A stretch of 64,000 nucleotides of DNA, the filler included, from Basidiobolus ranarum (taxonomy: Eukaryota), in assembly GCA_040143965.1 (NCBI GenBank). It is 26 parts of 26 records of this genome, joined end to end, with 100 filler letters (N's around TTAATTAATTAA, not from the genome) between each part and the next. Parts side by side here need not be neighbours in the genome. Positions count along the whole stretch, not along the records: positions 49,366 to 51,725 come from JASJQH010010302.1; 25 more parts are not named here. One strand, 5' to 3'. The position numbers were made by a program, and so were the translations under genes. Below, in pieces: positions 9,900-61,563 of this stretch (position 1 is its first letter; each line of letters opens with the position of its first letter). The notes under the pieces were generated by a model, which saw nothing but the letters and a program-made list of their open reading frames with translations, ran no database searches and was not told the DNA's origin.

Positions 9900-12097
9900 T
9901 GACTTCAGAAGAAGCTTCTCTAATTGTGATGGAATACGACATAGACCCTGTGATTGACTCCGTAGCCTCCTTAGATCTATACCCGCGTCCCAAGCCCGAG
10001 AATGCATCGATTTATCCACATAGACCACCTATAGTTACTATTATGGGTCATGTTGACCATGGAAAAACCACTCTTTTGGACTCTTTGCGAAATGCTTCAG
10101 TTGCTGCTCAAGAGGCTGGCGGTATTAGTCAACATATTGGAGCTATCTCGGGTATATTTTCAATTGGCAAAGCTATAATCTCCTCGTTGTTCTTATTTAA
10201 CACATTGTGTAGTAAACTTCCCATCCAAAAAGAAGATTACCTTTATTGATACCCCTGGTCATGCTGCTTTCAATGCAATGCGCGCTCGTGGTGCGAATGC
10301 TACAGATATCGTAGTATTAGTGGTGGCTGCCGACGATGGTGTAATGCCACAAACTATTGAAGCCATTAATCATGCCACTGCTGCTGGAGGTACGTATTGA
10401 TTCATTTTGCATATTACGTTGACTAACAACAAGATTCTTTACAGTTGCCATCATCGTGGCCATAAACAAGTGTGACAAACATAATGTCAACACGGTAAGA
10501 GTCAACTTGAGTTTTCTAAATAGAAATAGCCTTGTTAACTGATTCACTTTATTTACAGCAAAAGATCAGAGAAGAACTACTCAGATATAACGTTCAACTA
10601 GAGGAATTTGGCGGTGATACTCGAGCTGTACCTATCTGCGGCTTAACTGTAAGTAGAAAGAAAATCACTCGGGAATCTTTCGAAATTCTAACCTAGAAAT
10701 GAATTAATAGGGTATGGGACTCATTGAACTCAAAGAAAATATCTCCACGTTAGCTGAAGTTCTCGATCTACGCGCTGAGGTAGATGGCACCTCGGAAGGA
10801 GTGGTTTTAGAGTGACGGGTTGAAAAGGGACTTGGGTAACTATTAATAAATATGCCACTTTAAAATATACTCGCGGTTTATTCATTGGCGATTCATCAAA
10901 CTAAGAAACGTCTCTACTGTATTGGTACATCGTGGCACTCTAAAGAGCGGCTCAATCGTAGTGGCAGGTACCTCTTGGGGCAAAATTCGCCGTAGGATTG
11001 ATGATAAAGGAAAAATTGTAAATGCGGCCGGCCCTGGAACTCCTGTAAGAATAATAAGATGCAAGGATCTTCCCAAAGCTGGCGATGAGATGTTAGAGGC
11101 TGAAGATGAAGTAAGTTCTACATGATTTGAACAATTTTCAAAGAAAACTATTCCTGAACCAAAACAATGGATAGCTTTAACCAGGGTAGTCGTTGAAAAC
11201 CGTAGAATCCGCGCAACACGTGAGGTTGAGATGAAAGATATTGAAGTAATTCGTGAGAGACGACAAAAAGAATGTGAGGAACAGTTTGAAGAACGCCTAA
11301 AGGAAAAGAAATTTAAAAGAGAAGTTTGGGAGTAATATCACGGCTTAAGATCTGTATATCCTACGTTGGAACGAAGTGAAACCAAACCGGTAGACCACGA
11401 AGTAGATAAAATTACAATTATTGAGTTACCTGTTATTGTAAAAGGGGATGTGAGTGGAACAGTTGAAGCAGTCGTAGCCTCTTTGGACGGGCTTCCTTCA
11501 AAAGAAGTTCGGTTGAAAGCGATTCACTCAAATGTTGGAGCTATTACTGAAGCCGACGTAGATATGGCAGCTGCCTGTGATGGATTCGTTCTCGGCTTTA
11601 ATGTCAAGGGAGGTAAACAAACTATGGCAAAAGCAAAACTCAAGAAAGTAGGAGTTAAAGATCACACCATCATCTATAAGCTGCTAGAGGATGCAAAATC
11701 AATCCTAGCTAGATTACTTCCACCTGAATACACCACCAGAGTGACAGGTGAAGCGAAAATTCAACAAGTTTTCCAAATCAATGTCAAAGGTAGAGTTACC
11801 TCACCCGTCGCAGGTTGTAGAGTGACCAATGGATCCATTTTGAAAAACAACAAGATTAGAATTATCAGAAAAGAGAGAACCGTTTTTGAAGGTAAAGTGC
11901 TTCTTCTATATTCAATAGTCGAGTTTATTAATATTAACTCAGGCGTTCATATTAGTTCTTTGAAACAGGTCAAAACTGATGTTACAGAGGCTAAAAAGGG
12001 CATCGAATGTGGTTTATCGTTCGAAGAGTTTAATGATTTTCAGGAAGGTGATATCATTCAAAGTATTGAAACCATTGAAGTACCACGACAACTTTAA
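9900..12097 (+). pseudogene. IFM1: Mitochondrial translation initiation factor IF2, intron-containing, disrupted (5' partial)
   Basis: [48 protein letters not shown] and GIECG motifs. Introns 10152-10212, 10390-10444, 10495-10558, 10649-10710, 10836-10905, 11111-~11174 and probably 11892-11942. In-frame TGA at 10813-10815, TAA at 11333-11335, and an acceptor 1 nt out of frame at 11174. Confidence 0.88.
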
Positions 12098-12371
12098 ACC
12101 CGCAATTTGAATCAAAATAAACTAGTCTCTCCACAGAGAGTTATGCTGAGCATATATTCAGCCATGACCTTTATTATTGGCCGTTCACTTGTGTCTATTT
12201 TACAATTATGACCAATACGTGACATTCAAGCATTGGCATTCATTCATCCTCTCCTCCCTCATCGAGCATAGNNNNNNNNNNNNNNNNNNNNNNNNNNNNN
12301 NNNNNNNNNNNNNNNTTAATTAATTAANNNNNNNNNNNNNNNNNNNNNNNNNNNNNNNNNNNNNNNNNNNN

Positions 12372-14843: not shown

Positions 14844-15173
14844 ATTCTCATTATGGCTGGAATACAAAGCCTAAAATATCTAAATAAAGGCATGCATATT
14901 AATTCAAATTCCTACAGCAGTAAACCCAGTAATTTGCCATTCAAAAATTATATTCTTGCAAAAATTGCTGGATATTGAATAACACATGCCAAATTTGAGG
15001 ATCAATATTTAAACATGTATGAATACCACCAAGATACTGTCAAGAAACTGCCATCACATCATCAAAATCCCTGGCAGAATGCAAGCCAACAATATTGTGA
15101 CGGTTCTCTGACAGTTTTGCTATTTCAGAGGGTGGATCTGATCCGGATTAAATCAATTTTATTTTTGTTAGGG
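14844..15173 (+). mobile_element. CMC-like transposon right end
   Basis: End of transposase (RHAY*), CCGTCA/TGACGG-derived subterminal motifs, terminus TTTTTGTTAGGG. Confidence 0.85.
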
Positions 15174-16423
15174 TATTGTTTGTGCACATGAAAGTAGAAA
15201 TCTCATAGGAAAAGTAGCAAACCAACAGACTCTGAATGTTAGAGCTGCTGTCACTTACTCTGATGATGAGTGGTTCAACATTTTGGAAACTTGGCAGAAT
15301 CTTGCCTGAAATCACCTGGATTTCAGCCAATCATGGAAAAACCAATACCAGGTGTTAGTCTGTAGATTCTTGCTTATCTCATGTGACTTATCCTTGGTTC
15401 TTGCATGCAAATGGCAATTGGGCTAGCATAGCCCTATTCATGAAATTCCTAAAGAATGTATGCAATTATTGAATTGGAAAAGAAAGAAAAGCAGCAAAAG
15501 AAGTACTCAAGGAGCAGGAAGATAATAAACCCAAGGGAAAAGCAAGGGAGCCAGTGAGCTTAAGCTCCACTGTCCCACTTAGCATATTCTCTGGACCATT
15601 ACAATGATCTGTATTTCCAGAGTCAGATATACTGGCAAAAAATCTTGATTTCAGCATGAAACCAGGTACACCATTTGGAAGAGTGCTAAATTTGGAAGTT
15701 TATCCAACACCTGGCAGCTCTCAACTAGCCAAAATACCAGCAAATAAAACTCATGCCTCTCCAACCTCAACTGGTACCTTGCAAAGTGTTTAAATTAGCC
15801 CCAAAGTAAAAGGCAAGCAAAAAGCTAGACAAACACTGCAAAGCACCCTCAGTAGTGTCACACTACAAGGATGTACAAAAATAGTCAAAGTTCTTGAGGA
15901 GTATTTTCAAAAGTATGAAGGTAAAAATGCAGTGCAAGTATGTGGAAAGTGGCTTCAGAAGAAGAACATTCAACTTGATATTCAGTCTGGTGTTGACCAT
16001 GCAGATATCTGGAAAGAACTTAATACAGAGTGGCACAATGTTGCAGGGTATCTGCCAGATAGCTGGAAGAATGTTGATTCAGCAATATTAATACAATGGT
16101 GGGCTTTGATGGAGATATTGATACAAATGCATGATGATGATGAGTTAAGTCTTGGGTATGAAGAGCTCTATAAAAATATTCAGGAGAATATATCAAAGAA
16201 ACTTGGGATTTCAAAGGTGACAAATTAGCATTCAAGTGGTAAGGGTGTAAAATTTGAGTTACATTTTTTGCACATGTGCTCATCCATAGTTCTCTGAGAT
16301 TGTAGCCAATCATGTACAACTATTTTGTGAGATCTTGAAGGTTCACTCCTGAAACAGAGAAAATTGATTAAAATCAAATCTAGTGGTTTTCCTACAATAA
16401 CAATCTTCAAATTTCTGTTGGGG
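15174..16423 (+). mobile_element. CMC-like transposon: 3' part of the unknown second gene and left end
   Basis: KKNIQLDIQSGVDHADIWKELNTEW... reads toward the terminus TTTCTGTTGGGG. Homologous to 22254-23178, 23318-24622 and 33248-34066. Confidence 0.85.
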
Positions 16424-16881
16424 TGGGCCACACAGATCTGAGTTTATCAGGCCCAATTTTTGATCAATTTTGCTTGTTCCAGAGCCTGCAAATGGCTGTC
16501 TGTGTTGCTACCATATAGGCAACCTTCACATAGCTCCAGATTCAGTGGAATTATGAAATTTAGTCTCAAAACCTTCTTGTTTTTGATCAAATTTCTTATA
16601 TTTTCAGCTCCTAGATGAACAAACCTCTTACGCCAGATTTTCCAATCTATCTCTTCAGCTGTGGCAGAATTAACTTGTTCATATATTGGCCTAATAAAAT
16701 GAAGTTTGTGCAAGTTATTTAGCTTAGCTCCAGAAGCTATATAATTCCCTGTTTGATCCCTGATTGTAGAGCCATTTTGGTCAAAATTAATGCAATATCC
16801 CTCTGATTTAGCCTTACTCACTGATAACAACTTTTTTGCTATCCCAGGCACATATAGCACATTTTTCAGCATCAAGTACAT
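16424..16881 (-). mobile_element. Copia protease / GAG-pre-integrase fragment
   Basis: LKNVLYVPGIAKKLLSVSK, WRKRFVHLG, CEGCLYG. Confidence 0.88.
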
Positions 16882-16915
16882 GTCCCAGAAATGCCCCCAA
16901 GATCCAGTTCAATTT

Positions 16916-17214
16916 TGTTGAAGTTTATTGTCTTTATCATATTTGTTATCTTTATCTTTATACACCTAACTATTTCATATATCACATATAAGATAGTTAA
17001 CATTACTTAGTCAAATATCACTTAGCTGAAAATTGGAACATATATTATTTATATATGTGAATGATGTGAGAATTAGCAATTCCATATTGGAAATTTCAAA
17101 CTCGTCCAAATTGCCCCAAAGATAGCTCATTTTACTCCCACAGATGTTCTGAACACAACACCAGTGTTAGTTTTCTGTATTTCCACCAAAATGTATAAAT
17201 GCTTAATTTCTGGT
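16916..17214 (+). mobile_element. Copia LTR family D (partial)
   Basis: Starts TGTTGAAGTTTATTG. Homologous to 42184-42559 (-), which adjoins a PBS and gag, and to 24828-24963 (-). Confidence 0.8.
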
Positions 17215-24722: not shown

Positions 24723-25828
24723 CAAAACTATAAATGTCAACTTTCTACTCAATAAATCAACAAGTGAAAACCACCAATTCCTCTAATTCTCCAAACCACT
24801 TCCAACAGGCTCCCAAATACTTTAACATATATAATATATGTTCTGATTTTCAGCTAAGTAATATTTGACTAAGTAATGTTTACTAACTTATATGTGATAT
24901 ATGAAATAGTTAGGTGTATAAAGATAGAGATAATTAATATGATAAAGACAATAAACTTCAACATATAATACACATATCCTGGATCAAACTTTGATCTGAT
25001 AAGATATTTGGATGTAAATTGGGGAAAAGATATTGAAGACAGGAGATCTACAATATGACACTTATTTCTTCTCTGTAATGTAGCTATTTCTTTGAATTCT
25101 AGGAAACAACCTACCTTGGCACTTTCAACAACAGAAGCAGAGTACATGGCTGCCTGTGAAGAAACAAAAGAAGCAATACGGTAAAGAAAACTTCAAATAG
25201 ATTTAGGTTATTCTCAACATTTGCCAACCACTATATTTCAAGATAATCAAAGTTGTATCTAATTAGCTAAAAATCCCACTTCACATGATAGAAGCAATCA
25301 TATAGATGTTAGACATCACTTCATTAAAGAGACTATAGACAATAAGTTTATTGACTTAATATATTGCTCTACAAAAGACATAATTGCTGCTATATTAACC
25401 AAAACATTAGCTAGATAGAAATTTGGGAAATTTAAACCTTCCTTAGGATTACTTTATATGACTATTTAGTTGAGGGAGAGTGTTGAAATTAGCATTGCCT
25501 AAGCACCTATATAGTCATATATAGCTTGGTACTTAGTTATCTTATATTTGACAAAGATATTGTCCATTATTCTCAATCAGAATTTACTTCAAATGTTTTT
25601 AGCAACTTGGAAGCTCTTAGATATATAGAATTTACAGACTTATGCTAAAAGCCCTAAACTTTGCACACATGTTCCTGGGGCCTTCCTTAAAATATTCTAC
25701 ATGTTAGTTTGCTTACATCTTGGCAAAACTAAAAGTGTAAACTCTCTACTCAAATAATCAGCAAGTGAAGGCCACCAATTTCTCTCATTCTCCAAAGCAC
25801 TTCCAGCAGGCTCCCAAATACTTTGACA
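24723..25828 (+). mobile_element. LTR-A end, inverted LTR-D end, copia RNase H, PPT and full LTR-A (25481-25828)
   Basis: ALSTTEAEYMAACE, FQDNQSCI, HIDVRHHFI; PPT TTGAGGGAGAG. Confidence 0.9.
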
Positions 25829-26564
25829 TTACAGACATGCCATTCTTGGTGCCTTTGGATTACTTCCATATAGTCTTGGAGTATTCTGCCTCAAGACTAG
25901 ACTGTCCATCAGGATTTGCAAGAGTCAGAACCCTCCGATTATGTCCTGGAGAGGTTCCCACTTTACTGATCCTTTTTCTTGCTAGAGAATACTGCTAGGA
26001 GATCCTGAAGTTAGAAAGTTTGCTTTCTTTAAAGAACAAGCTGTGAAGCCCTCCCTTGCCTAGAAGGAATACTTGGTGGACCTTTGGCAGGAATATCTTC
26101 AGAAACATGATCTCTTTATGCTTTATGTTAATACTAGTCTCATTCCACTAATTTCTATTGTTGATAATTCATTTTTGCACTTGTTACTCCCTCCCACTCC
26201 ACTTAATAGTGTCTTAGACCCTACTGACTTAAATTTGTACTCTGCAACATTCATACCAATACTCCAGAGCTTCACCCTTTATTTTAAAAATATATAACAG
26301 TAGTTATGGCTTCTTTGTTTTGTTTGAAATAACAATTTCACCTGTTGGTGACTGGCTCTCCCCATTTCCTGCACTGCTTGCACTGCCACTCTTTCCAGAA
26401 TTATAAGTGCCAGCTTCATTATTGCTGTTACCATGCAATTATCTCCTTAATTACCTTTGTCACTTTTACCATTGCCATTTCCACTACTACCCTTACCAGC
26501 ATCATCTGCACCAGCTCCAGTGCGGCTATTTCCAATGCGATTGTCTCGTCCATATCCAATTAAA

Positions 26565-26825
26565 TGGTCCGATTTTGCACTCTTGCGGAAATAGTGAGAG
26601 GGCTAATAGGTAGGAAGAGTGCCCTAACCCTAAGCACTCTTACCAGAATGGCTTTAACTCTAACCCATTTTGACCAATCAAGTGCTCTGATTTTGCACTC
26701 TTACCGGAAAAGCATCCCGATATTAGCAGTAGGAAAAGTGTGCCTTACTGGAAAGATCATAACCTTAAATCGATTTTGACCAGTCAAATCGTTAAGATTC
26801 TGCACTCTTACGAAAAAGCAACACG
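26565..26825. repeat. Cluster of GCACTCTTRC motifs with direct and inverted copies
   Basis: GCACTCTT at about 26577, 26634, 26695 and 26802, with an inverted AAGAGTGC at about 26615. Direct repeat 26667-26714 vs 26773-26820. Confidence 0.7.
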
Positions 26826-26952
26826 GCCATAAGTGGTAGCTTGTGATTAATATTATTTCAAATATATTTTAATATTAAAGTTATAGAATAATCTGGAGTG
26901 TGTTTTGACTTGATCGATTTCATAGACTTTCAGTAATTGTTAGATATACAGC

Positions 26953-27078
26953 AGTAGCACACCCACAAAAACCGCAGTATGCATGAATTATGGTAGTGAC
27001 ACAAACACATTTACCGCAGCATGTATGAATTCCGCCAGTAGCACAAACACATATACTGCAGCAGGTATGAATCACCGC
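26953..27078. repeat. Minisatellite, three degenerate 42-bp units
   Basis: Units start at 26953, 26995 and 27037. Core AGTAGCACAAACACATWTACCGCAGCATGTATGAAT. Confidence 0.85.
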
Positions 27079-27190
27079 AATAATGGGATTNNNNNNNNNN
27101 NNNNNNNNNNNNNNNNNNNNNNNNNNNNNNNNNNTTAATTAATTAANNNNNNNNNNNNNNNNNNNNNNNNNNNNNNNNNNNNNNNNNNNN

Positions 27191-34587: not shown

Positions 34588-35087
34588 GGCATGAACCAGA
34601 TTAGTTACATTCTAGTAGTCATAGTGGATGGAATCTGACAGATAATGTAACCTAGTGACGATGAATGTTAGAAAACCCGAAGAGTTAGGATTGTCAATCA
34701 TGAGAATCTTACCAACAAAAAACATGGTGACGATGTTGTGAAATTGTTTTCCATCGATACCTAAGTCTTCTTCAATGCCACCGAGACGAGCATTGCCAAT
34801 ATTGCCCTGAATGTACTAGTCAGTGTTGAACGAAAGATACGAAGCAACGGACATATGCTTACTCGAGTCAAGGAAGCAAATAAATACATGATGGAGACAA
34901 AGGGTAAAATGCTACAGAAGAAATATCAGTTATGGGAATGGCTGGGCCGAATAAGAAGATATTCACTTTACAATAGATCTTGCTTCCATACTAATCTACG
35001 CTCCAGTGCCTTCAGCTCGGGATCATCCATGGAAGAAACCACAGTACTGGTTTCGAGATCATCACTTACTACTGATTGAGGATTCAT
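34588..35087 (-). CDS. MFS transporter, anion:cation symporter (Dal5/Tna1-like) family; 5' exons only
   Basis: Spliced translation MNPQSVV...LERRLVWKQDL / ILPFVSIMYLFASLTR / GNIGNARLGGIEEDLGIDGKQFHNIVTMFFV / GYIICQIPSTM with GT-AG introns. TATA-like sequence at about 35121-35130. Confidence 0.88.
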
Positions 35088-36227
35088 GCTAGGGTTGTGA
35101 GCTAAGAGAAATACGCCTTTTATTTATATAGGCTTTGTCCATGTAATTTCTACAAACGCGAAAGCCACCAAGATGTATCGGAATTTGATCTTAGCCATTC
35201 TGCTTCTGAAACACACCAATCACATCTTGACCGATGCTCATTTACTTGACAGATTGAAACCTGGATAAATATTTAAGTGGAGTTCATTGTATGTTGAATA
35301 TTTTTGTCAGCCAGCCTTCTTCATCAGTCAGGAAGTGGTGCTTAGGTGTGAAGCATGAAGTTGGATTCAGCTTATCTTCAGTCCGACTCGTTTCCAGATC
35401 CACCTCTAGCACTATAAATAGTTAGGACCAACTCCAAGGACAGTAGGTCGGTCCAGGTATGCAACAGACCACTTTGACTGCTCCACAAACCGATTTTAAT
35501 GTCGACCCATATTTAGCGCATTCCCGAAATGGTACCATGGCATGTTGGGTTGATAGACCTTTCTCTACCCCTGCTCAAGCTATCAGAGCCTATTAGAGCC
35601 TTGATGCTTATCAAATTCAGCTCCATGACTGTGGAAATTAGGGCCCAGATATAGGATGTAGAGTAAGTTTACTGAAGACAAATGCCAATTAGCATACAGG
35701 TTCATACCAATCTGGGAATATATGGAACATTGTCCAGAAATTCCCAGGCTTCTTACTGCTGATTCTCAATGTTGTGACTGAGATACCGATCAGAAGGGTT
35801 GGCGAATTCTATATGTGGTGGCTTGTACTGTATCTCACGCGCCTATTGGTGGACTACGAATACCTACAAGCACGCTTAGCCCACGTAGAAAATCAACCAG
35901 TATACAGGATGGGCTTTAACTAGGTATTAGTGGAGATAGTTGCTTCTACCAAGGAAATATGTCTGTGCATTCTTCTGGTTTGGAGCACCTCTAGGATCAT
36001 CCACATGGCAACTGTTCAGCATAGCAATACTTGTTTGATAACAACGTTTGCTCCGACTTCAAATATTGTTTTTCACAGGGTCAGTGCAAGATATATAGGG
36101 ATTGAGTACCCCATAACCAACCATTTGATTTTGGATATTTTAGATAGTATATCATTCGGTAAGATGTACTGAAGGTGTAAACGGGAATAATACTAATAAA
36201 ATATTCTGTACAAATGTGAGAAGGTAG

Positions 36228-36436
36228 TGTTAAAGTATTTGGGAGCCTGTGTGTGAAGTTTGGGGCTTCTAGCACAAGTTTGAAAAAATTTATATATCTG
36301 AGAACTTCTAAGTTGGTGCAATATTCTAAGTAAATTCCTCATGAGAATAATGGGTAATATCTTAGTACAATATAAGATAACTAAGTACTAAGCTATATAT
36401 GACTATATAAGTGCTTAGGCAATGCTAATTTCAACA
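36228..36436 (-). mobile_element. Internally deleted solo LTR-A with TSD GGTAG
   Basis: GGTAG at 36223-36227 and 36437-36441; both LTR termini intact. Confidence 0.9.
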
Positions 36437-36736
36437 GGTAGTGATTTCATGGTTCTCATAAATTTCAATATTTCTGAAGTTCTGGAAATAAGTGGACTAT
36501 TGCATTTTGGGAATTCTGCCAGTATTGCTGAAATACTTGAATCAAATACCTATACATTTATATATTCAATACCTATTTATGGAATAGGTTGCTAGTCAAA
36601 ACCCTATATATTGAAATCATGGCAGGAATATTGAGGAATGTGAAAATGCTTGAACTTAATCAAAACTCCTCAAACTTCTATACTACTCCAAGGCTACCTC
36701 TCTATTGTGATTCTTTGTCACTCCTTATGTAGGTAC

Positions 36737-36951
36737 TGTTGGATAATTAATCTTTATTCAACATCATAGTTAACTTTAGTTATGATACATATATCAGAAA
36801 CAGAAAAGCAACGTATCTATAGCCCCTATATTCTAAATAAGAATATCTCTATATCTATATAACAAGTATGTCTTATTACCCCCACTTATCTATTATATCT
36901 TATTACACAAAACTCCTGAATATCTCAAACAATTGATTTACTTTTCTACTA
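36737..36951 (+). mobile_element. LTR-like repeat family E (partial)
   Basis: TGTTGGATAATTAATC start, near-identical at 58995. Full inverted copy at 62292-62555. Confidence 0.75.
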
Positions 36952-37532
36952 NNNNNNNNNNNNNNNNNNNNNNNNNNNNNNNNNNNNNNNNNNNNTTAAT
37001 TAATTAANNNNNNNNNNNNNNNNNNNNNNNNNNNNNNNNNNNNNNNNNNNNTGATTTTTTTTCATATTCGGTATGATGCAATTATGGCATTCCTATTTAC
37101 AATGTTTGAGGACCATCCGACTACTCGTCGTTCAGAAATTAATTCTTTTGTGATTCTTGAAATCACTACCCCCTGCCATCATGCTAGCATAGAGTACCCT
37201 TCCCCAGTCCCCCCGCTAAGATGACCACACCATGTTAAAGGCGGTGAAAATGACAAGTGTGCACTTGGCGTTCTTTGCAATATACTGTGTTGGTTTTTCT
37301 TTATCCCCCTAATTAGAAATACTAGTATCCACTCCCATGCCAAAGACTAGGGCTTAAAAAGCTTTTTCATGTTGACATTGTGCTCATGATTAGTTTTACG
37401 AACTTGACATTTGACAATTCACAACAGGAAAAGTGCAACAATATTCAAATAAACTATACATATAAAAGCTTTTAAGCTTCAATAATAAGAATCTCTTTAT
37501 TTAAATTTGAATAAATTATTCTAATCTAAAGA

Positions 37533-39415
37533 CTACGCTATCTCAGCCCAGTCACAAATAACTGATTTACCATTAGTTTTGCAAACGGTTCCTCTACCAC
37601 AATAATCTTCGAAATATTCTCCATTACTACATTGGAAGAAGACAGGTGAAACTCCAGATTCCAAACACCTGAATTCTCCATGTTCACAAATAGCATTGGA
37701 TGGACGTATTTGATTGTTTTTCGTGAGTGTGACAGCATCAGAAAATCTTTGAGTATGAGCAACCTTTCCTGTTACAAACACAGTTCGAACAACCTCTAAT
37801 TGCTCTGTCACTGTGGAGGTGGCACAACCAGGGGCACATCTATGAGAGTTACCCACAGTACGGTGATTCAGAGAATCGATTGAAAGGGTAGCCTAAGTAT
37901 TGGAGTTCGTTGGGAATGCTCGGTTTGATTCAACAACAGTGCCCTCGACGATAGTTTCGACTTGACCATTAGATCCTGTAACGGTGAAGGTGTGTAACCC
38001 AGTAGGGACCATGACGGTGATTGTACGTACACTGTTCTTCTCAGTAACAGTTTCAGTAACAGTTTCGGTAACAGTCTCATGTAAGGTTACAATATCACTA
38101 TAGTGGTCAGTGCGAACTTTAGTCTCGGTGACTGCTTGAGATACAAAAGTAGGCTGTACAACAATAGTTTCGACTACACCATTAGATCCTGTGGCGGTAA
38201 AGGTTTTTGCGCTGGTATAAACAGGGACGTTGTTCTTGACAGTAACAGTCTCATAGATGGTTCCATTGTCAACATTGGAGTCAGTGCGAACATTGGTCTT
38301 AGTTACCTTTTGAGGGGAAACAGTAGGTAGGACAACGACAGTACGTTCAACAATAGTCTCGACCTGACCATTAGATCCTGTAACGGTGAAAGTTCGCGTG
38401 CCAATAGATACAGTGGCGTTGTTCTTGATAGTAACAGTCTCATAGACGGTTCCAGTCTCAACATTGGTCTTAGTTACTTTTTGAGGAGTAAGGGTAGGTT
38501 GGACAACTACAGTACGTTCAATGACAGTTTCGACTTGACCATTAGATCCTGTGACAGTGAAAGTCTGCTAGCCAGTAGTTACAGCGGCTTTTTTTCTGAT
38601 AGTAATAGTCTCATAGACAGTTCCAGCGGCAACATTGGAGTCAGTACAAACACTGGTCTTGGTTACTTTTTGGGGAGCAACGGTAGGTTGAACAACAACA
38701 GTACGTTCAACGATAGTTTCGACTTGACCCTTAGATCCTGTGGCGGTGAATGTGCGTGCGCCAGTGTGTACCGGAACGTTATTCTTCTCAGTAACAGTCT
38801 CATAGATAGTTATAATGTCACCATTGGAGTCAGTACGGACATTAGTCTGGGTTACAGTTTGAGGAGCAACCGTAAGATGGACAACAACAGTACGTTCCAC
38901 AGTCTTAGTAACAATAGAAGGGCGATATTCGGTATGAATATGACCAGCGGTGTCAGTCTTTATGACGGTTCTCACAGTTGGATATAAAGTAACTGTGGGT
39001 TTGGTAACTGTAATAGTTGGTTCTGTAACAGTTATTTCACCAGTTGCTACCGTTCCACTATTGGAGTCACTCACAACTGATTCAGTGTTACTTTGATGTT
39101 GAATATTGTCAGTTACTATCACAGTACGAGTGTCGGTACGATTTCTTCCGACAGAGTCAGTCTTGATGATTGTTCTCACACTTGGATAAATCGTAACTGT
39201 CGGTTCAGTGACCGTAACTGTAGGTTCTGTGACAGTTCGGTTACTGGTTACTTCCTTATCACTTTGGGAGTGATCATTCCGATGATGATCAATGGTCTTG
39301 GTGACAGTAGAAGAGTGATATTCGGTATGAATATGGCCAGCGGTGTCAGTCTTGATGACGGTTCTCACCGTCGGATATAAAGTAACTGTGTGTTTGGTAA
39401 CTGTGATAGTTGGTT
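37533..39415 (-). pseudogene. Thr/Val-rich repeat cell-surface protein with C-terminal CBM19-like chitin-binding domain; two in-frame TAGs (5' partial)
   Basis: One continuous frame. Repeats TFTVTGSNGQVETIVERTVVVQPT and PTVRTVIKTDTAGHIHTEY. C-terminus CEHGEFRC...FFQCSNG...CGRGTVC...CDW. TAG at 38568-38570 and 37893-37895. Confidence 0.75.
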
Positions 39416-39515: not shown

Positions 39516-40044
39516 GTAGCAATATCAGGCCTAGTACCAGTTGTTGCATATATGAGACTTCCAACTGCACAGCAGTAAGGAATATGTTTCATGATTTCAA
39601 CATCTTCAGAGATCTTTGGTTCCATATTCTTTGTGAGTTAGAGCATACATAGTGAATTTGAAGCTGTTTTACATTCTGACATATTGAATCTGTTTAAAAC
39701 ATCTCCAATATATTTTTCTTGTGTAACACAGAGTGTTCCAATAGTGGAATTTTGATGTATCTACATTCCAAGACAATATGCTAGTGATCCAAGATCTTGC
39801 ATTTCAAACTCAGTATATAGTCAGGTCTTAGTTTGTTTCATCAGATTTGGGCAATTACTAACTATTATGATATCATCAACATAAAGAGCAATTATCACTT
39901 TGGTGGCTTTGATAGTCTTGAAGTATATGGAGTGATCAGCTTTGCTACAATGGAAAAGATATTTCATGAAGATCAGATTGAATTTGGTATTCCATGTGCA
40001 AGGAGCCTGTTTCAGACCATATAGACTTCTCTGTAGTTTGCATA
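39516..40044 (-). mobile_element. Copia RT fragment
   Basis: VCKLQRSLYGLKQAP, ALYVDDIII, TRPDIA. Confidence 0.92.
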
Positions 40045-41879
40045 CCAATAACAAAAATAAAATTGATTTGATCAGGATTGGATCCACCCTCCAAAAGAGC
40101 AAAACCATCAGAGAACCATCACAATATGGGTAGCTTGCATTCTGCCAGGGATTTTGATGGTGTGACAGCGGTTTCTTGACAATATTTTGATGGTATTTAT
40201 ACATGTTAAAATATTGATCCCCAAATTGGCATGCGTTATTCAATATCTGGCAATTTTTGCAAAAACACAATTTTTGAATGGCAAATCACTGGGTTTACTG
40301 CAGCAGGAATTTGATTTAATATGCATGCCTTCAATTAGATATTTTAGGCTCTGTATTCCAGCCATAATGAGAATCAAAAAATACAAGAATCTCATTGTGT
40401 TTAGTCTCTACATATGCACTTACTTGACTGATTAGATATAACTCAACAACATCAATATGCTTTACCAGCAAACTAATGGTGGAAAAATTGCTAAACATCT
40501 GAAATTTTCAATAGCACTGACACTTGGCAAATAGCTGACTATTGTTACCATTCACAATGAGAACAAGCTCTTGGATTTTGGCAAATTTCCACAAAGAATT
40601 CAGCCAATATATCCCCAACTTGAAGTCAACAAATGTCCTGCCACAAGTAGATGTGTCATTACTGGAATAGATTACCCCATGGCTAAAGCAATAATACTGC
40701 ATACCTTGATCTATCTCACCAAGAAGTCTGTCTTGCAGCTTTCCTAAAAATACCTTCAGATTATCACACAAGCAAAGTAGTCAAAATTATAGAGGTACTT
40801 ACTCTGTGTCCATGAATTGGGCTTTGTTGCAGTTATTGTGCTCACACAATGCAAAAACCCGTGAGCAAATTGAACAGAGCCCTTTCTTGGCAGGTTAATA
40901 TACTCTGGAGTCTCCTTAACCCATTGCATTACATCCATCACTGATTTAGCTGATACATTGTTAATCAGATAACCATATGGTAATACTGAAAATTTCACAC
41001 AGAGCATCATTTAGCTGCAGGTGCGCTCCATTGGGAACTCCCAGAATGCATAGCAAGGGCCTATAATCTCTAAGCATTGTGAAATATGCAGCAGGGAATG
41101 TATTGCACACTGGCATAGATTCAGTCTATCTTCTTTAAACCTGTAATAAAGTTTTTCATATCCAATTACAAATTCTTTGCACAGTTGCTGTATCTGCCCA
41201 AGATCTGCCAATATAAGTTGATGCTGTCAGAATATATTAACAATATCCACAAACAACTCCCAATATTGCCAATACTTATCAGGCGGAAATCTTTTCAAAA
41301 TTCCACTTGAATATATACAAATCCAATACTTCCAGTCTCTGCATTTGAATAAACACCTAGATGAGTGGATATTTATAGGAGTCCTGGTAAAATATAATGG
41401 TATCTTGATGTTTTCAAGCATTTTCCCAATCAATTGAAACTTTGATCCTATCACAAATGGCTCATTCATATTGAATTTTGCACTATATAGCTGAGTAAGT
41501 AGTATTGGAATGTTGTTGAATAGTAAGTGCATATTGCCTAAGGGAAGCTCTGGCTCAAGCTGATCCCCTTTAGCAATATAATCTGAGGCTTACAGCTAAT
41601 ACCAAGTTTAATGTAAGACTAACTCTTTGGTGAATTGATATCAATATATCATGTAGAAATCTGACTGGGCTCTTGATGGTAAGATCATGGAGTTTAGTGT
41701 GGTATTTGGATTGTAGTAATGCGTATGCCTGACAGAGTAAACTCCAGTGATTTGACAAAATCTACAGCAAGATAGTGCATTGTGCCCATGAAAACCTCCA
41801 AGTTTACTGATGGCAGGAGTGTCACCAACACATACAATGATATTAGTTTTAATAAAATATTGCCCCATCTGAACCCTAT
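40045..41879 (-). mobile_element. CMC/EnSpm-like (Tnp2-type) transposase, best-preserved copy, with right end
   Basis: VGDTPAISKLGGFHGHNALSCCRFC, MHLLFNN, FKCRDW, HSLLH and WEFPMER match the CMC signature (D, CxxC, MH, H-x3-H, E). A few stops. Confidence 0.9.
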
Positions 41880-49365: not shown

Positions 49366-51725
49366 TCCTTAAGAATCATGCCATTTCTCTGCTTTCTGAC
49401 TTCAGTGATGCACCCTTTGAAGAACTCTGGGAGTCAGCTGGCCACCTGATGAATGCTTCTTCTGAAGAAGCCTCTACCTCTGCTTGACTTCCTGAGATTA
49501 TGCTGTTAAACTGCAACAGCATTCAGCCATCAAGACAAACTCTGGAGAGACTTCTTTCAAGATTTGCAATTCTCTGTTTGATTGATGTTCAATTACCTTC
49601 TACACTTACAACTAACTTTTACTGCTTTACCTCTGCTAGAGCCAAGAATACTTCTAGCATCTGCTTTCTCTCTTCCTCTGTCAATGTCCATGAACTCTGT
49701 ATGCCAATCTGCCTACCCTACTGTGCTGCTCTCCAATTGCCTACATTGAGCTTAGTGCTCTGTTATCTTCCTCCCAAGCTCTGTCTCTCTGAGATTCAGG
49801 CTCTCTGCCACAAGATTCAGCAATACCAACTCTCTTCTTCTGCTCCCATGATACTGCTTGGAGACCTCAATATTCCTCATCCTGAAAACAACACTTCCAT
49901 ATCTTCAAGAGCTAAACCTAGAAATACATTCCTGCTGAAGTTCCTGAGACAATGTCACCTAATCTCACTTGGTGCTCAATCTGAGAAGAGGTGTGTAGAC
50001 TGGATCTGCCCCTCTGCTGCTGCTCTCTGCTTGGTCAATGAAGTCAAGCCATTCTCAGGTGCTCAACTAGGATCCTTTAGAGCTTCTGATCACTCAGCCT
50101 GGTCTCTCTCCTTGCAGCCCATAGTCAAGAGAAAGCTTCCCAAGCTTACTATTTTGACTCATAAGGCTACTCAGAAGCAAAGAAAAGACTTTGGGAACTA
50201 TCTCATGCTCACTAGCCTTCTTCTTTCTCTCCCTGATGATATAGACACTGCTTGGCTCTTTATGAAGCACTTGATCCTGATTTCTGCCAGTCTCTCTCTG
50301 CCTTGCAAAACCTCTACCTCCACTTCAAGAAAATGGGACACCATTGTTTCTGCCCTTCATCAGAGCTACCTGAGTTTTCCTAACCCAAAAACAGAACAAC
50401 TCCTCCTTGTTGCCATTCATCACTCTAAGGCCATTCAACACTCACTCCATACTCAGCTTTGGGATCATATCATGAGCTCTCTGCCACTCCAGTCAGCCAA
50501 TTCTACTACAAGAACTGTCTCTAGAATCTACAGGGCAATGAGGCCCACAACCAGGAAAGTGCCCTCCACTGACAAGCTTGCTAATATTTTCTTTTCTAAA
50601 GTACACCATAACACTGCAGTCTTCCATCCTGAGTTCAGGGACCTACCACTACCACTGTATCTGAACCAAGCAAGGATCTTTGATGTTCTCAAGAAGCTTC
50701 CTAACTCTACAGCTCCTGGTGTTGACACTATCTCCTATGAGCTCCTGAAAACCAACTGTTTGGCAATGTCAGCACTACTTCTACCTCTCTTCCAGCAATG
50801 CTCTTCCCAGCTCAGTACTCCCATGGAATGGTCCTTTGCTAATGTTTTGCCACTCTACAAAGGAAAAGGAAAACACCTGGATCCAAGCTCCTACAGACCT
50901 ATCTCCCTGCTCCCCACTTGTAGAAAGGTACTTGAGCTGTTGATAGCTCAGGAACTCTATACTGATTCTCTCAAGTTTCATCCAGCTCAATTTGGCTTTG
51001 TCCCAAAGCTCTCTCTAGAATATGCAGTAATACTCAGTCAAGATCACACTCTGCAGTGCAAGTATTCATCAGTTCTTTTTGATATTACTAAGGCCTTTGA
51101 TACTGTTGACAGGAATTTACTCTGGAAGAAACTTCAGCAATTCTCTTCCCCTTCTCTCACTCTCCTGGTTAGATCACTGTTCCTGGATCCACAGGCAAAA
51201 ATTCTTCATCCTTCTGAGCAGTCTGCTGTCTACTCTGTGCCTAATGGTGTAGTGCAAGGCTCTGTTCTTGGCCCTATTCTCTTTGCTATCTTTCTGAATG
51301 ACTTCCCCAGTCTCTCCCCAGGCTCTATGGTTACTCTCTTTGCTGATGATATCAGAGTCTCCTCCTCCAATATCCAACAAGACTCTGAGACTATCAGCAA
51401 TTATCTCCAGCAGAACAATCTCCAGCTCTCCTTAGCCAAGACTGTTCCTCTAGGCTGCTCACTCTCTTTGAATGGTTCAACTCTATCTGCTCAGAACTCA
51501 GCTACCTACCTTGGATTTCCTTTCCTTCCTGATGGCTTGGACTCTGCTGCTCATCTCAAGAAAAGAATGGTTTTGGCAAGGCAGGCTCTTCACAAGCTAC
51601 TGGCTGTTACTCCACCTACTACTTCTGCTCCCAGTTGCCTACTTCTCCTCAAACAGTTTGTTTTTCCAGTTCTAGAATTTGGCTTACCTCTTCTTTCTCT
51701 CACTTCCAGGGACTTCACCAAACTT
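49366..51725 (+). mobile_element. Non-LTR retrotransposon (LINE): end of an upstream ORF (stop 49485-49487) and uninterrupted APE-RT ORF from 49500, 3' truncated by the contig end
   Basis: APE motifs LLNCNS, YLPP, GDLN, VDWI, SDH. RT motifs APGVD, YRPISLL, QFGF, DITKAFDTV, GVVQGSVLGP, FADD, YLG. Confidence 0.95.
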
Positions 51726-59204: not shown

Positions 59205-60383
59205 AAACCAGTCTAAGTATATCCTAGGAATACTAAAGAAGCTTAAAGTAAAAGAATGTAATCCAGTATCTACCCCATTGGAGACAAATCTTGATTTGAC
59301 CAAAAATGGCTCAAATCAGATGTTTTTAGATTCAAATCAAAGCCCCAAATTTCCTTATCAATCTATGGTTGCTACTTTGATGTATATCATAGTTAGAACA
59401 TGGACAAATATTGCACATTCTGTGGGAGTTATATGTCAATATCTTCAAAATTATGGATCTGATCTAATCATAGCAGTTAAGTGGTTTTCAGATATTTGAA
59501 AGGTACTGTGGATCTATGCTTCAACTTCACACATTCTGGATCAAGCTTTGATATGATGGGATATTCAGATGAAATTGGGGAAGAGATATGGAAGACCAGA
59601 GATCTACAATAGGTTACTGATTTCTTTGCTGTAATGGAGCTATTTCTTGGAATTCAAAGAAACAACCTACTGTAGCACTTTCAACAACAGAAGCTGAATA
59701 CAAAGCTGCCTGTAAAGCAACCAAAGAAGCAGTATGCTTAAGAAAACTCTTAACAGATTTGGGTTATTCTCAAAATTCACCAACCACAATATTTCAAGAT
59801 AATCAAAGTTGTATCAAATTAGCTAAAAATCCCACATCTCAAAACAGAAGCAAACATATGGATATTAATCATCATTTTATTAGAGAGACTATAGAGAATA
59901 AGTTTATTGACTTAACTTATTGCTCTACTGAAGACATAATTGCTGATATATTAACCAAGCCATTAGCTAAATAGAAATTTGAGAAATTTTGACCTTTATT
60001 AGGATTAGTTTATATGACTGTTTAGACAAGGGAGAGTGTTAGAATTAGCATGGCCTAAACACCTGTATAGTCATATATAGCTTAGTACTTAGTTGCCTTA
60101 TAATTCACTATGATATTATCACTTATTCTCAATTGGAATTTACTTGGAATATTTATACTAACTTATAAGTAATCAGATATAACATTTTTCAAACTTGTGC
60201 TAGAAGCCCTAATCTTTGCACACATGTTCCTGGGACATTCCTTAACACATTCTACATGTTAGCATGCTTACATCTTGACAAAACTGTAAATGTCAACTTT
60301 CCACTCAATAAATAAGTAAGTGGAAACAACTAATTCCTCAACTTCTCCAAACTACTTTCAACAGGCTTGCAAATACTTCAACA
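59205..60383 (+). mobile_element. Copia A RT/RNase H, PPT and 3' LTR (60037-60383)
   Basis: KKQPTVALSTTEAEY, IADILTKPL; PPT AAGGGAGAG. Confidence 0.93.
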
Positions 60384-60599
60384 TTGATATCAGTTAGATA
60401 CAGCAAGCTCAGTACCATTGGTCTTATATCAATATAATCATATTATTACATTCCATCACCTGAAGACTTTAGCCATAGCCAAATTCATATATTTGCCAAA
60501 TAAAAAATGACTGATCTATTTTAACTAGCTTTGCCTAAGCACCTATAAAGTCATACCCAGGTTGGCATATAGCTATATTATATTGCTCAAAGATATTTC

Positions 60600-61563
60600 T
60601 TATTATCATATCATCAGATTCAAGTATTATATCTAGGTTGATATTATTGATGCAGAGAGCATTGATGATTTTAATTGTTGTGAAGGTCTTAAAGTATATG
60701 AGTTGAATTGCTTTTTTTGGATGGAAAAGATATTTCAAGAAGATTTGATTGCTTTTGAACCTGTATGCATGAGGAGCTTGTTTAAGACCATATATACATC
60801 TCTGTAGTTTACACACTTGCCCTAACAAAAATGAAATTAATTTGATCCAGATCAGATACACCCTCTGAAATAGCAAAACCATCAGAGAACCATCACAATA
60901 TTGGTGGCTTGCATTCTGCCAGGGATTCTGAAGATGTGATGGCAGTTTCTTGATGGTATTTTGACGGTATTTATACATGTTTAAATATTTATCCTTGAAC
61001 TTGGCATGCATTATTTAATATCTAGCAATTTTTGCAAAACTCTGATTTTCAAATGGCAAATTACTGGGTTTACTGCTGTAGAAATTCAAATTAATATGCA
61101 TGCCTTTGTTTGGATGTTTTAGGCTTTGTATTCCAGTCATAATGAGAATCAAAAAATACAAGAATCTTGTTGTGATTAGTCCCTACATATGTGCATACAT
61201 AACTGATTAGACATAACTCAACAACATCAATATGCTTAACCAACAAACTAATGGTGGACAAATTGCTAAACATCTGAGATTTTGAATAGCAATGAAACTT
61301 GGCAAATAGCTGACTCTTGTTACCATTCACAATGAGAATAAGTGCTTGGATTTTGGCAAATTTTGGTAAAGAATTTAGCCAATACATCCCCAACTTGCAG
61401 TCAACAAATGTCCAGCCACAAGTAGATGTGTCATTGTTTGAATAGAATACCCCATGGCTAAAACAATAATACTGCATATCTCCATCTATCTCACCAAGAA
61501 GTCTGTCTTGCAGCTTTCCTAAAAATACCGTCAGACTATCACACAAATAAATTAGTCCGATTA
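60600..61563 (-). mobile_element. CMC transposase tail and right end (60820) joined to a copia RT fragment
   Basis: ORF 61091-61546; CCCTAACAAAAA at 60820; then QVCKLQRCIYGLKQAP. Confidence 0.88.

Follow-up and report, generated by a model that had tools for sequence, protein, structure and literature searches.

Transposons of Microbotryum, a basidiomycete, are exposed to a hypermutation at TpCpG sites that resembles repeat-induced point mutation (RIP). In these transposons the target has disappeared from sites at which a change would be non-synonymous (Hood et al. 2005, as reported in Horns et al. 2012, PMC3318451), and the accessible sections of the latter paper interpret this target-site depletion as a counter-adaptation. 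A second described route to the loss of CpG is the deamination of 5-methylcytosine (5mC), which, according to the accessible part of PMC13297926, depletes methylated repeats of CpG in fungi and vertebrates. In ascomycetes, RIP is a RID-dependent genome defence that changes CpA to TpA. Here a long interspersed nuclear element (LINE) of the fungus Basidiobolus ranarum is described, which has no CpG dinucleotide at all and a long, conserved open reading frame. It fills one contig (JASJQH010010302.1) in a 64-kb stretch of 64,000 nucleotides from the assembly GCA_040143965.1. This whole stretch is called the window below.

The LINE shares with the Microbotryum transposons that a fungal transposon lineage faces repeat-targeted C-to-T mutation at sites containing CpG and that the target is depleted. 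As there, targets are gone at non-synonymous sites (0/27 CGN codons for arginine and 0/219 NCG codons) and the protein is conserved. Unlike in Microbotryum, no CpG survives in any context, not even at synonymous positions; moreover, the host is a zoopagomycete, and the CpGs left in its repeat relics show no TCG-specific pattern. Repeats that decay by 5mC deamination, as characterized in the same part of PMC13297926, are similar in that repeats, unlike genes, lose CpG and gain TpG/CpA on both strands. The loss in the window is far deeper, with an observed/expected ratio (o/e) of about 0.06 in relics and 0 in the LINE against a roughly five-fold deficit in humans (PMC13297926), and despite it the LINE has an intact, conserved frame. 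RIP of ascomycetes is also a repeat-specific C-to-T defence; however, TpA is not raised in the window and CpA is in excess. The finding is an extreme case of something already known, in a fungal lineage that has been little studied. The literature search found no paper on a wholly CpG-free intact or active transposon.

A retrotransposon contig without CpG

The window consists of 26 contigs, sorted by length from 2377 down to 2337 bp and joined by spacers (N44-TTAATTAATTAA-N44). Since these are separate contigs, their order in the window has no genomic meaning. The LINE contig contains 567 A, 676 C, 378 G, and 739 T. While 108.3 CG dinucleotides are expected, none is observed. In 5000 mononucleotide shuffles of the contig the number of CpGs averaged 108.3 (sd 8.1) and never fell below 74. 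GpC occurs 123 times (o/e 1.05-1.14). Because GpC is normal, the deficit is specific to CpG.

One reading frame of the plus strand, 786 codons long, contains just one stop; from position 49488 to the end of the contig it stays open, for 746 codons. The five remaining frames have 33-65 stops each, and their longest open run is 85 aa. An earlier note on this DNA had claimed that CG is absent from this C-rich contig, that all arginines are encoded by AGA or AGG, and that a frame of about 740 codons encodes an apurinic/apyrimidinic endonuclease (APE) and a reverse transcriptase (RT) with recognizable motifs. It had proposed the count of CpG o/e as a check. The count is 0/108.3, with C making up 676/2360 of the bases, and the other two statements also hold: 742 of the open codons follow the ATG of the second open reading frame (ORF2) of the element, with RVT_1, GDLN, SDH, and FADD present, and the arginine codons are as given below.

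Codon usage around the missing CpGs

ORF2 has 27 arginine codons and all of them are AGR (R = A or G; AGA 18, AGG 9), with no CGN (N = any base). In the host gene FAS, CGN makes up 28 of 37 arginine codons. As a baseline for CpG and arginine codons, and solely for that purpose, 28 LINE loci from a scan of metagenome contigs were used. Most of them show 23-35% identity, six short or stop-ridden segments reach 38-52%, and none of the 28 is a member of the family to which the window LINE belongs. In the RT segments of 22 of these distant loci, 204 of 346 arginine codons (59%) are CGN and 142 are AGR. The nearest distant locus (L001, 35% amino acid identity) has 15 CGN codons and one AGR codon among 16. 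CpG o/e in the RT-matching loci ranges from 0.35 to 1.09, and none is near 0. If a master copy with CGN codons had lost every CpG, its invariant arginines would have been changed to Cys, Trp, His, Gln, or a stop.

The choice of the third codon base is likewise fully tied to what follows it. Among codons ending in a pyrimidine and standing before a codon that starts with G, 80 end in T and none in C, while elsewhere 200 end in C and 196 in T (Fisher P = 5e-22). Codon boundaries of the C|G type number 0 versus 38.9 expected. None of the 219 NCN codons is NCG, while 27 of the 162 GTN, GGN, and CTN codons end in G. The same protein recoded with the codon usage of FAS contains 61 +/- 5.7 CpGs (minimum 45 in 2000 draws), and shuffling the synonymous codons of ORF2 itself gives 37 +/- 4.4 and never 0.

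TG and CA together are in excess in the LINE contig (o/e 1.22-1.26). Across codon boundaries, T|G (the product of synonymous change) is found 80 times versus 53.6 expected, and C|A (the non-synonymous product) 66 times versus 54.5. The larger excess of T|G implies that the synonymous route was favoured at these boundaries. A corresponding preference for the synonymous product in the loss of NCG within codons is unsupported, the excess being 10 for TG and 5.5 for CA.

Conservation of the protein

The protein encoded by ORF2 belongs to a small family, whose members found in protein searches are P0003 (90% amino acid identity), P0225 (89%, N-terminal 251 aa), P0228 (83%), P0227 (66%), P0004 (65%), P0001 and P0002 (62%), and P0005 (51-53%). 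Beyond this family, protein matches have about 37% identity or less. No relative above 90% amino acid identity was found in the protein searches, including a search for fragments of young copies (best match P0225, 89%). Searches with tblastn and blastn found no second copy of the LINE among the 26 contigs, and scans of genome contigs and viral contigs for DNA of family members returned 0 relatives. P0225 and P0003 are both reported on a 4636 bp contig in ENA and cover residues 1-251 and 255-742 of ORF2. By this arrangement the two probably stem from a single element that is broken once (by a stop or a frameshift).

In an alignment of six family sequences, the window copy matches 197 of the 198 columns that are identical in the other five. 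The same count is 197/197 for P0003, 197/206 for P0001, 197/210 for P0002, 197/204 for P0004, and 197/251 for P0005. The window copy differs from P0003 at 47 positions. When columns are divided by whether they are conserved among P0001, P0002, P0004, and P0005, these differences fall in 2 of 204 conserved columns and in 45 of 284 variable ones (Fisher P = 1.5e-9). That the differences avoid conserved columns implies that the two sequences diverged under purifying selection. Ten arginines are invariant in the family, and all ten are encoded by AGR in the window copy.

Conserved residues, arginine codons that are all AGR, C that never stands before G, and the use of CGN by distant relatives together point to a lineage that was recoded under selection. 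There is thus indirect but strong support, from sequence comparison, that the LINE lineage became CpG-free under purifying selection and not by the decay of one copy. The earlier note had suggested that the CpGs were lost under selection for function; the conservation of 197/198 residues, the 27/27 AGR codons, and the dependence of codon choice on context all agree with this. Conservation of the protein likewise gives indirect support to the view that the depletion may be a property of the family or of its master.

CpG loss in other repeats of the host

Nineteen other contigs in the window are CpG-poor. Each has 1-8 CpGs (o/e 0.012-0.115) and no open frame longer than 189 aa. Their GC content is about 35% (e.g., 1-2377, 14844-17214, 39516-41879, and 59205-61563), and they are mosaics of repeat families with 71-91% mutual identity. 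Ty1/copia domains (RVT_2, gag_pre-integrs, and Pol_BBD) are found in five of the ten longest frames scanned. Judged by these features, the 19 contigs are old, dead Ty1/copia relics.

In 121 alignments between relics (46,023 columns), the adjacent double mismatch CA/TG is found 342 times and the runner-up 79 times. Where one copy of a pair has CG, the partner has CA in 57 cases and TG in 34. The overall transition/transversion ratio in these alignments is 1.16. The pattern of CA/TG mismatches indicates that the masters of the relic families contained CpGs and that their inserted copies then lost them through deamination, which struck either strand. The o/e values of CpG, TG/CA, and GpC are 0.06, 1.36, and 1.18 in the relics and 0.75, 1.13, and 0.85 in host genes. 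A CpG deficit with an excess of TpG/CpA and normal GpC is therefore a feature of the repeats and not of the genes. CpG o/e is 0.85 in the contig with the gene IF2 and 0.70 in that with FAS. The earlier observations that the other transposons here are CpG-poor and broken and that host genes are CpG-rich are both borne out by these counts.

The CpGs that remain in the relics are found in the contexts CCG (54), ACG (52), TCG (32), and GCG (32). RIP of the ascomycete type (CpA to TpA) was considered and does not fit: the o/e of TpA is 0.60 in the LINE and 0.78 in the relics, and CpA is in excess in both (1.22 and 1.36).

Long intact frames are rare among CpG-poor contigs, the LINE being the only one of 20 to have one. 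What is unusual is zero CpG combined with an intact, conserved frame, and not zero CpG alone.

Origin of the CpG-free state

The CpG-free state is probably the outcome of a mutation-selection ratchet, in which CpG hypermutation targeted at repeats is combined with purifying selection. In this host, repeats undergo intense mutation of CpG to TpG/CpA on both strands. The simplest cause would be deamination of symmetrically methylated CpG, or else a RIP-like process directed at CpG. The process has stripped about 94% of the CpGs from the old Ty1/copia relics, and the LINE lineage would have kept replicating throughout, over a long time. Synonymous CpG losses (NNC|G becoming NNT|G, and NCG giving way to other NCN codons) would have been fixed and losses that damage the protein purged. 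CGN codons for arginine would have been replaced by AGA or AGG, because any transition that destroys the CpG of a CGN codon alters the amino acid, and such codons leave every daughter copy fragile. The end-point of the ratchet would be a coding sequence without CpG that still looks functional. As a by-product, we infer, these 2.36 kb would offer no substrate for a CpG-specific methyltransferase or for CpG hypermutation.

CpG methylation is the presumed cause of the CpG loss. In a related species, Basidiobolus meristosporus, a CDCA7-type zinc-finger protein is present, according to the accessible part of PMC10538959. The accessible part of PMC11105155 reports genes with the DNA_methylase domain in seven entomophthoralean proteomes, among which Basidiobolus is not listed. 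RIP-index signals in entomophthoralean genomes are described there too, with Zoophthora radicans showing the strongest, and CpG is not mentioned.

Several observations weigh against recoding of the lineage by this ratchet. At the mean CpG retention of the 19 dead repeats, about 6.6 CpGs are expected in the LINE; the probability of zero is 0.0013 with pooled retention or 0.027 with a mixture, for a contig that was chosen post hoc. One dead repeat contig (4953-7326) holds a CpG-free run of 2191 bp. At codon positions 2-3, TG is found 50 times versus 39.8 expected and CA 48 times versus 42.5, so TG is not the rarer product, and the enrichment among NCN codons is chiefly in NCT, not in NCA. Codon usage today is therefore more than a set of frozen deamination products. 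Since the searches brought up no copy with more than 90% amino acid identity, recent activity of the LINE is surmised from its sequence rather than observed. The closest relative, annotated as two gene calls, seems to be broken at one point. Both the CpG status of the family consensus and the ratio of non-synonymous to synonymous substitutions (dN/dS) are deduced from one copy plus protein alignments, and the contig, which comes from short reads, may itself be a collapsed consensus of several copies. The literature search, which did not cover supplements, found no paper on 5mC or CpG depletion in Basidiobolus.

At present the case rests on a single contig of 2.36 kb, whose own sequence speaks strongly for recoding under selection. 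Should the whole family turn out to be CpG-free and still mobile, the LINE would offer a clean example, from nature, of an element that has lost all targets of a CpG-directed host defence and kept its function, and an extreme form of target-site depletion of the Microbotryum type. It would also raise the questions of what silences repeats without CpG and whether the defence selects for its own evasion.

A less likely reading, though one to be taken seriously, is that the fall of CpG below its neutral equilibrium was itself selected. The LINE would then be invisible to CpG-specific methylation or hypermutation and persist where the Ty1/copia elements died. It is the sole CpG-poor contig of 20 with a long frame, it has fewer CpGs than the 6.6 predicted from dead repeats (pooled P = 0.0013), and its arginine codons have moved off the CGN that distant relatives use. 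For the idea itself, the Microbotryum transposons provide a precedent (PMC3318451). If true, this would explain why the LINE is the only transposon in the sample with an intact gene, and it would be a counter-defence by dinucleotide recoding in an early-diverging fungus. However, hypermutation with purifying selection passively yields the identical pattern, and the mixture P for zero CpG is just 0.027 in a contig selected for having none.

It is rather improbable that the CpG-free contig is an artefact or foreign DNA, that is, several copies collapsed into one consensus, or a contaminant from an organism with strong CpG suppression. The assembly is highly fragmented, both contig ends lie inside the element, its GC content is 44.7% compared with about 35% in the other repeats, and nothing similar to it occurs in the other contigs of the window. 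Yet extreme depletion specific to CpG is common to the LINE and 19 repeat contigs of the same assembly, and natural relatives with 51-90% amino acid identity exist in public data. A collapsed consensus, for its part, would remain a CpG-free consensus of the family.

Simple decay, in which a dead copy lost its CpGs after insertion from a master that had them, is very improbable. Other repeats in the window did decay in this way, as the 342 CA/TG double mismatches show, and the excess of TG+CA in the LINE (o/e 1.26) is similar to that of the relics. But decay of roughly 60 CpGs would alter every CGN arginine and half of the remaining sites, whereas 197/198 invariant residues, including the 10 invariant arginines, are kept, 746 codons are free of stops, and the differences from P0003 avoid conserved columns. 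Decay of the LINE after insertion is thus contradicted by residue conservation and by the avoidance of conserved columns.

Equally hard to sustain is a pressure at the RNA or cDNA level, such as an RNA restriction factor that senses CpG or biased editing when the element replicates: the pyrimidine-rich sense strand hints at strand-specific forces, but the strand bias is also found in L001, which keeps its CpG and so shows that the bias is not tied to CpG loss, dead host repeats that do not replicate lost CpG alike, and we know of no CpG-sensing RNA factor in fungi.

Structure of the LINE

The features of the LINE are listed in Table 1. The element is cut at both ends of its contig: the 5' end is 134 nt upstream of the ATG of ORF2, and the 3' end falls inside ORF2. 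The relatives of full length (P0001, P0002, and P0005) are 890-923 aa long, so the contig carries about 80% of ORF2. In the family alignment P0225 begins at the Met of the ATG at 49500, and P0001 one codon upstream. A short frame enters from the contig start and ends 12 nt 5' of this ATG, leaving an in-frame stop between the two; it is too short to search for homologues and is possibly the last part of an ORF1.

Table 1. Features of the CpG-free LINE, in positions of the 64-kb window
Feature	Position	Strand	Basis
5' fragment of an APE+RT retrotransposon without long terminal repeats	49366..51725	+	Entire 2360 bp contig, 0 CpG, spacers on both sides, cut at both contig ends
Open frame of 39 codons, entering from contig start, ending in TGA (49485-49487)	49368..49487	+	Three-frame translation; same frame as ORF2
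ORF2, first 742 of about 890-923 codons, stop-free, cut off by contig end	49500..51725	+	Frame scan, family alignment
APE-type endonuclease domain, about 240 aa	49500..50219	+	AlphaFold2 model, Foldseek, weak Pfam matches
GDLN endonuclease catalytic motif (G121, D122, N124)	49860..49871	+	Invariant in 17/17 aligned sequences
SDH endonuclease catalytic motif (S196, D197, H198)	50085..50093	+	Invariant in 17/17 aligned sequences
Reverse transcriptase domain, Pfam RVT_1	50883..51521	+	E 1.1e-26 (94.2 bits), above cut-off; covers profile positions 6-204 of 205
FADD reverse transcriptase active-site motif	51339..51350	+	A619, D620, D621 invariant in 6/6 of the family alignment

The AlphaFold2 model of ORF2 residues 1-250 has a predicted local distance difference test (pLDDT) score of 81.7, and Foldseek matches it to APE1 and to the endonucleases of TRAS1 and L1 (E 1.7e-8 to 2e-7). 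The Pfam matches of ORF2 to Exo_endo_phos_2 and Exo_endo_phos are weak and under the curated cut-offs. D167 of the endonuclease, like the two catalytic motifs, is invariant in 17/17 aligned sequences. The nearest solved protein is human L1 ORF2p (E 1.6e-11 across the reverse transcriptase region). By its motifs and domains, the frame encodes an APE endonuclease and a reverse transcriptase.

The architecture is that of an ordinary APE+RT LINE, and by sequence the family is new and narrowly distributed. Like other APE-type LINEs (L1 and TRAS1), the element has an N-terminal APE fold with GDxN, D, and SDH, a central RT with FADD, and a single ORF2, which is about 900 aa in its relatives. It is unlike them in that identity to LINEs beyond its small family is only about 30-37%, the Pfam matches of its endonuclease are below cut-offs, and CpG is wholly absent. 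Sense strands of LINEs are usually A-rich, while that of the window element is pyrimidine-rich. It consists of 29% C, 31% T, 16% G, and 24% A (C+T 60%, GC skew -0.28, CT/AG o/e 1.67). L001 has the same base skew and a CpG o/e of 0.65. The protein of the window LINE is 17% Leu and 12% Ser.

Other contigs in the window

Another contig carries a FAS fragment with 88% identity to FAS of Basidiobolus ranarum; its next matches, from Mucoromycota, have at most 63% identity, so the host is a Basidiobolus-like zoopagomycete. CpG is intermediate in the contigs 24723-27090 and 34588-36951 (o/e 0.24 and 0.46), neither of which has a long frame. These may be younger repeats, or places where a repeat meets unique DNA. 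The contig 37052-39415 is gene-like, with a CpG o/e of 0.75, a low GpC o/e of 0.56, and frames of 281, 224, and 218 aa. The frames of 281 and 224 aa, on the minus strand, have no Pfam match. At 9900-12271, the IF2-like gene is split into several open frames (133 aa and 253 aa, plus strand), consistent with introns.

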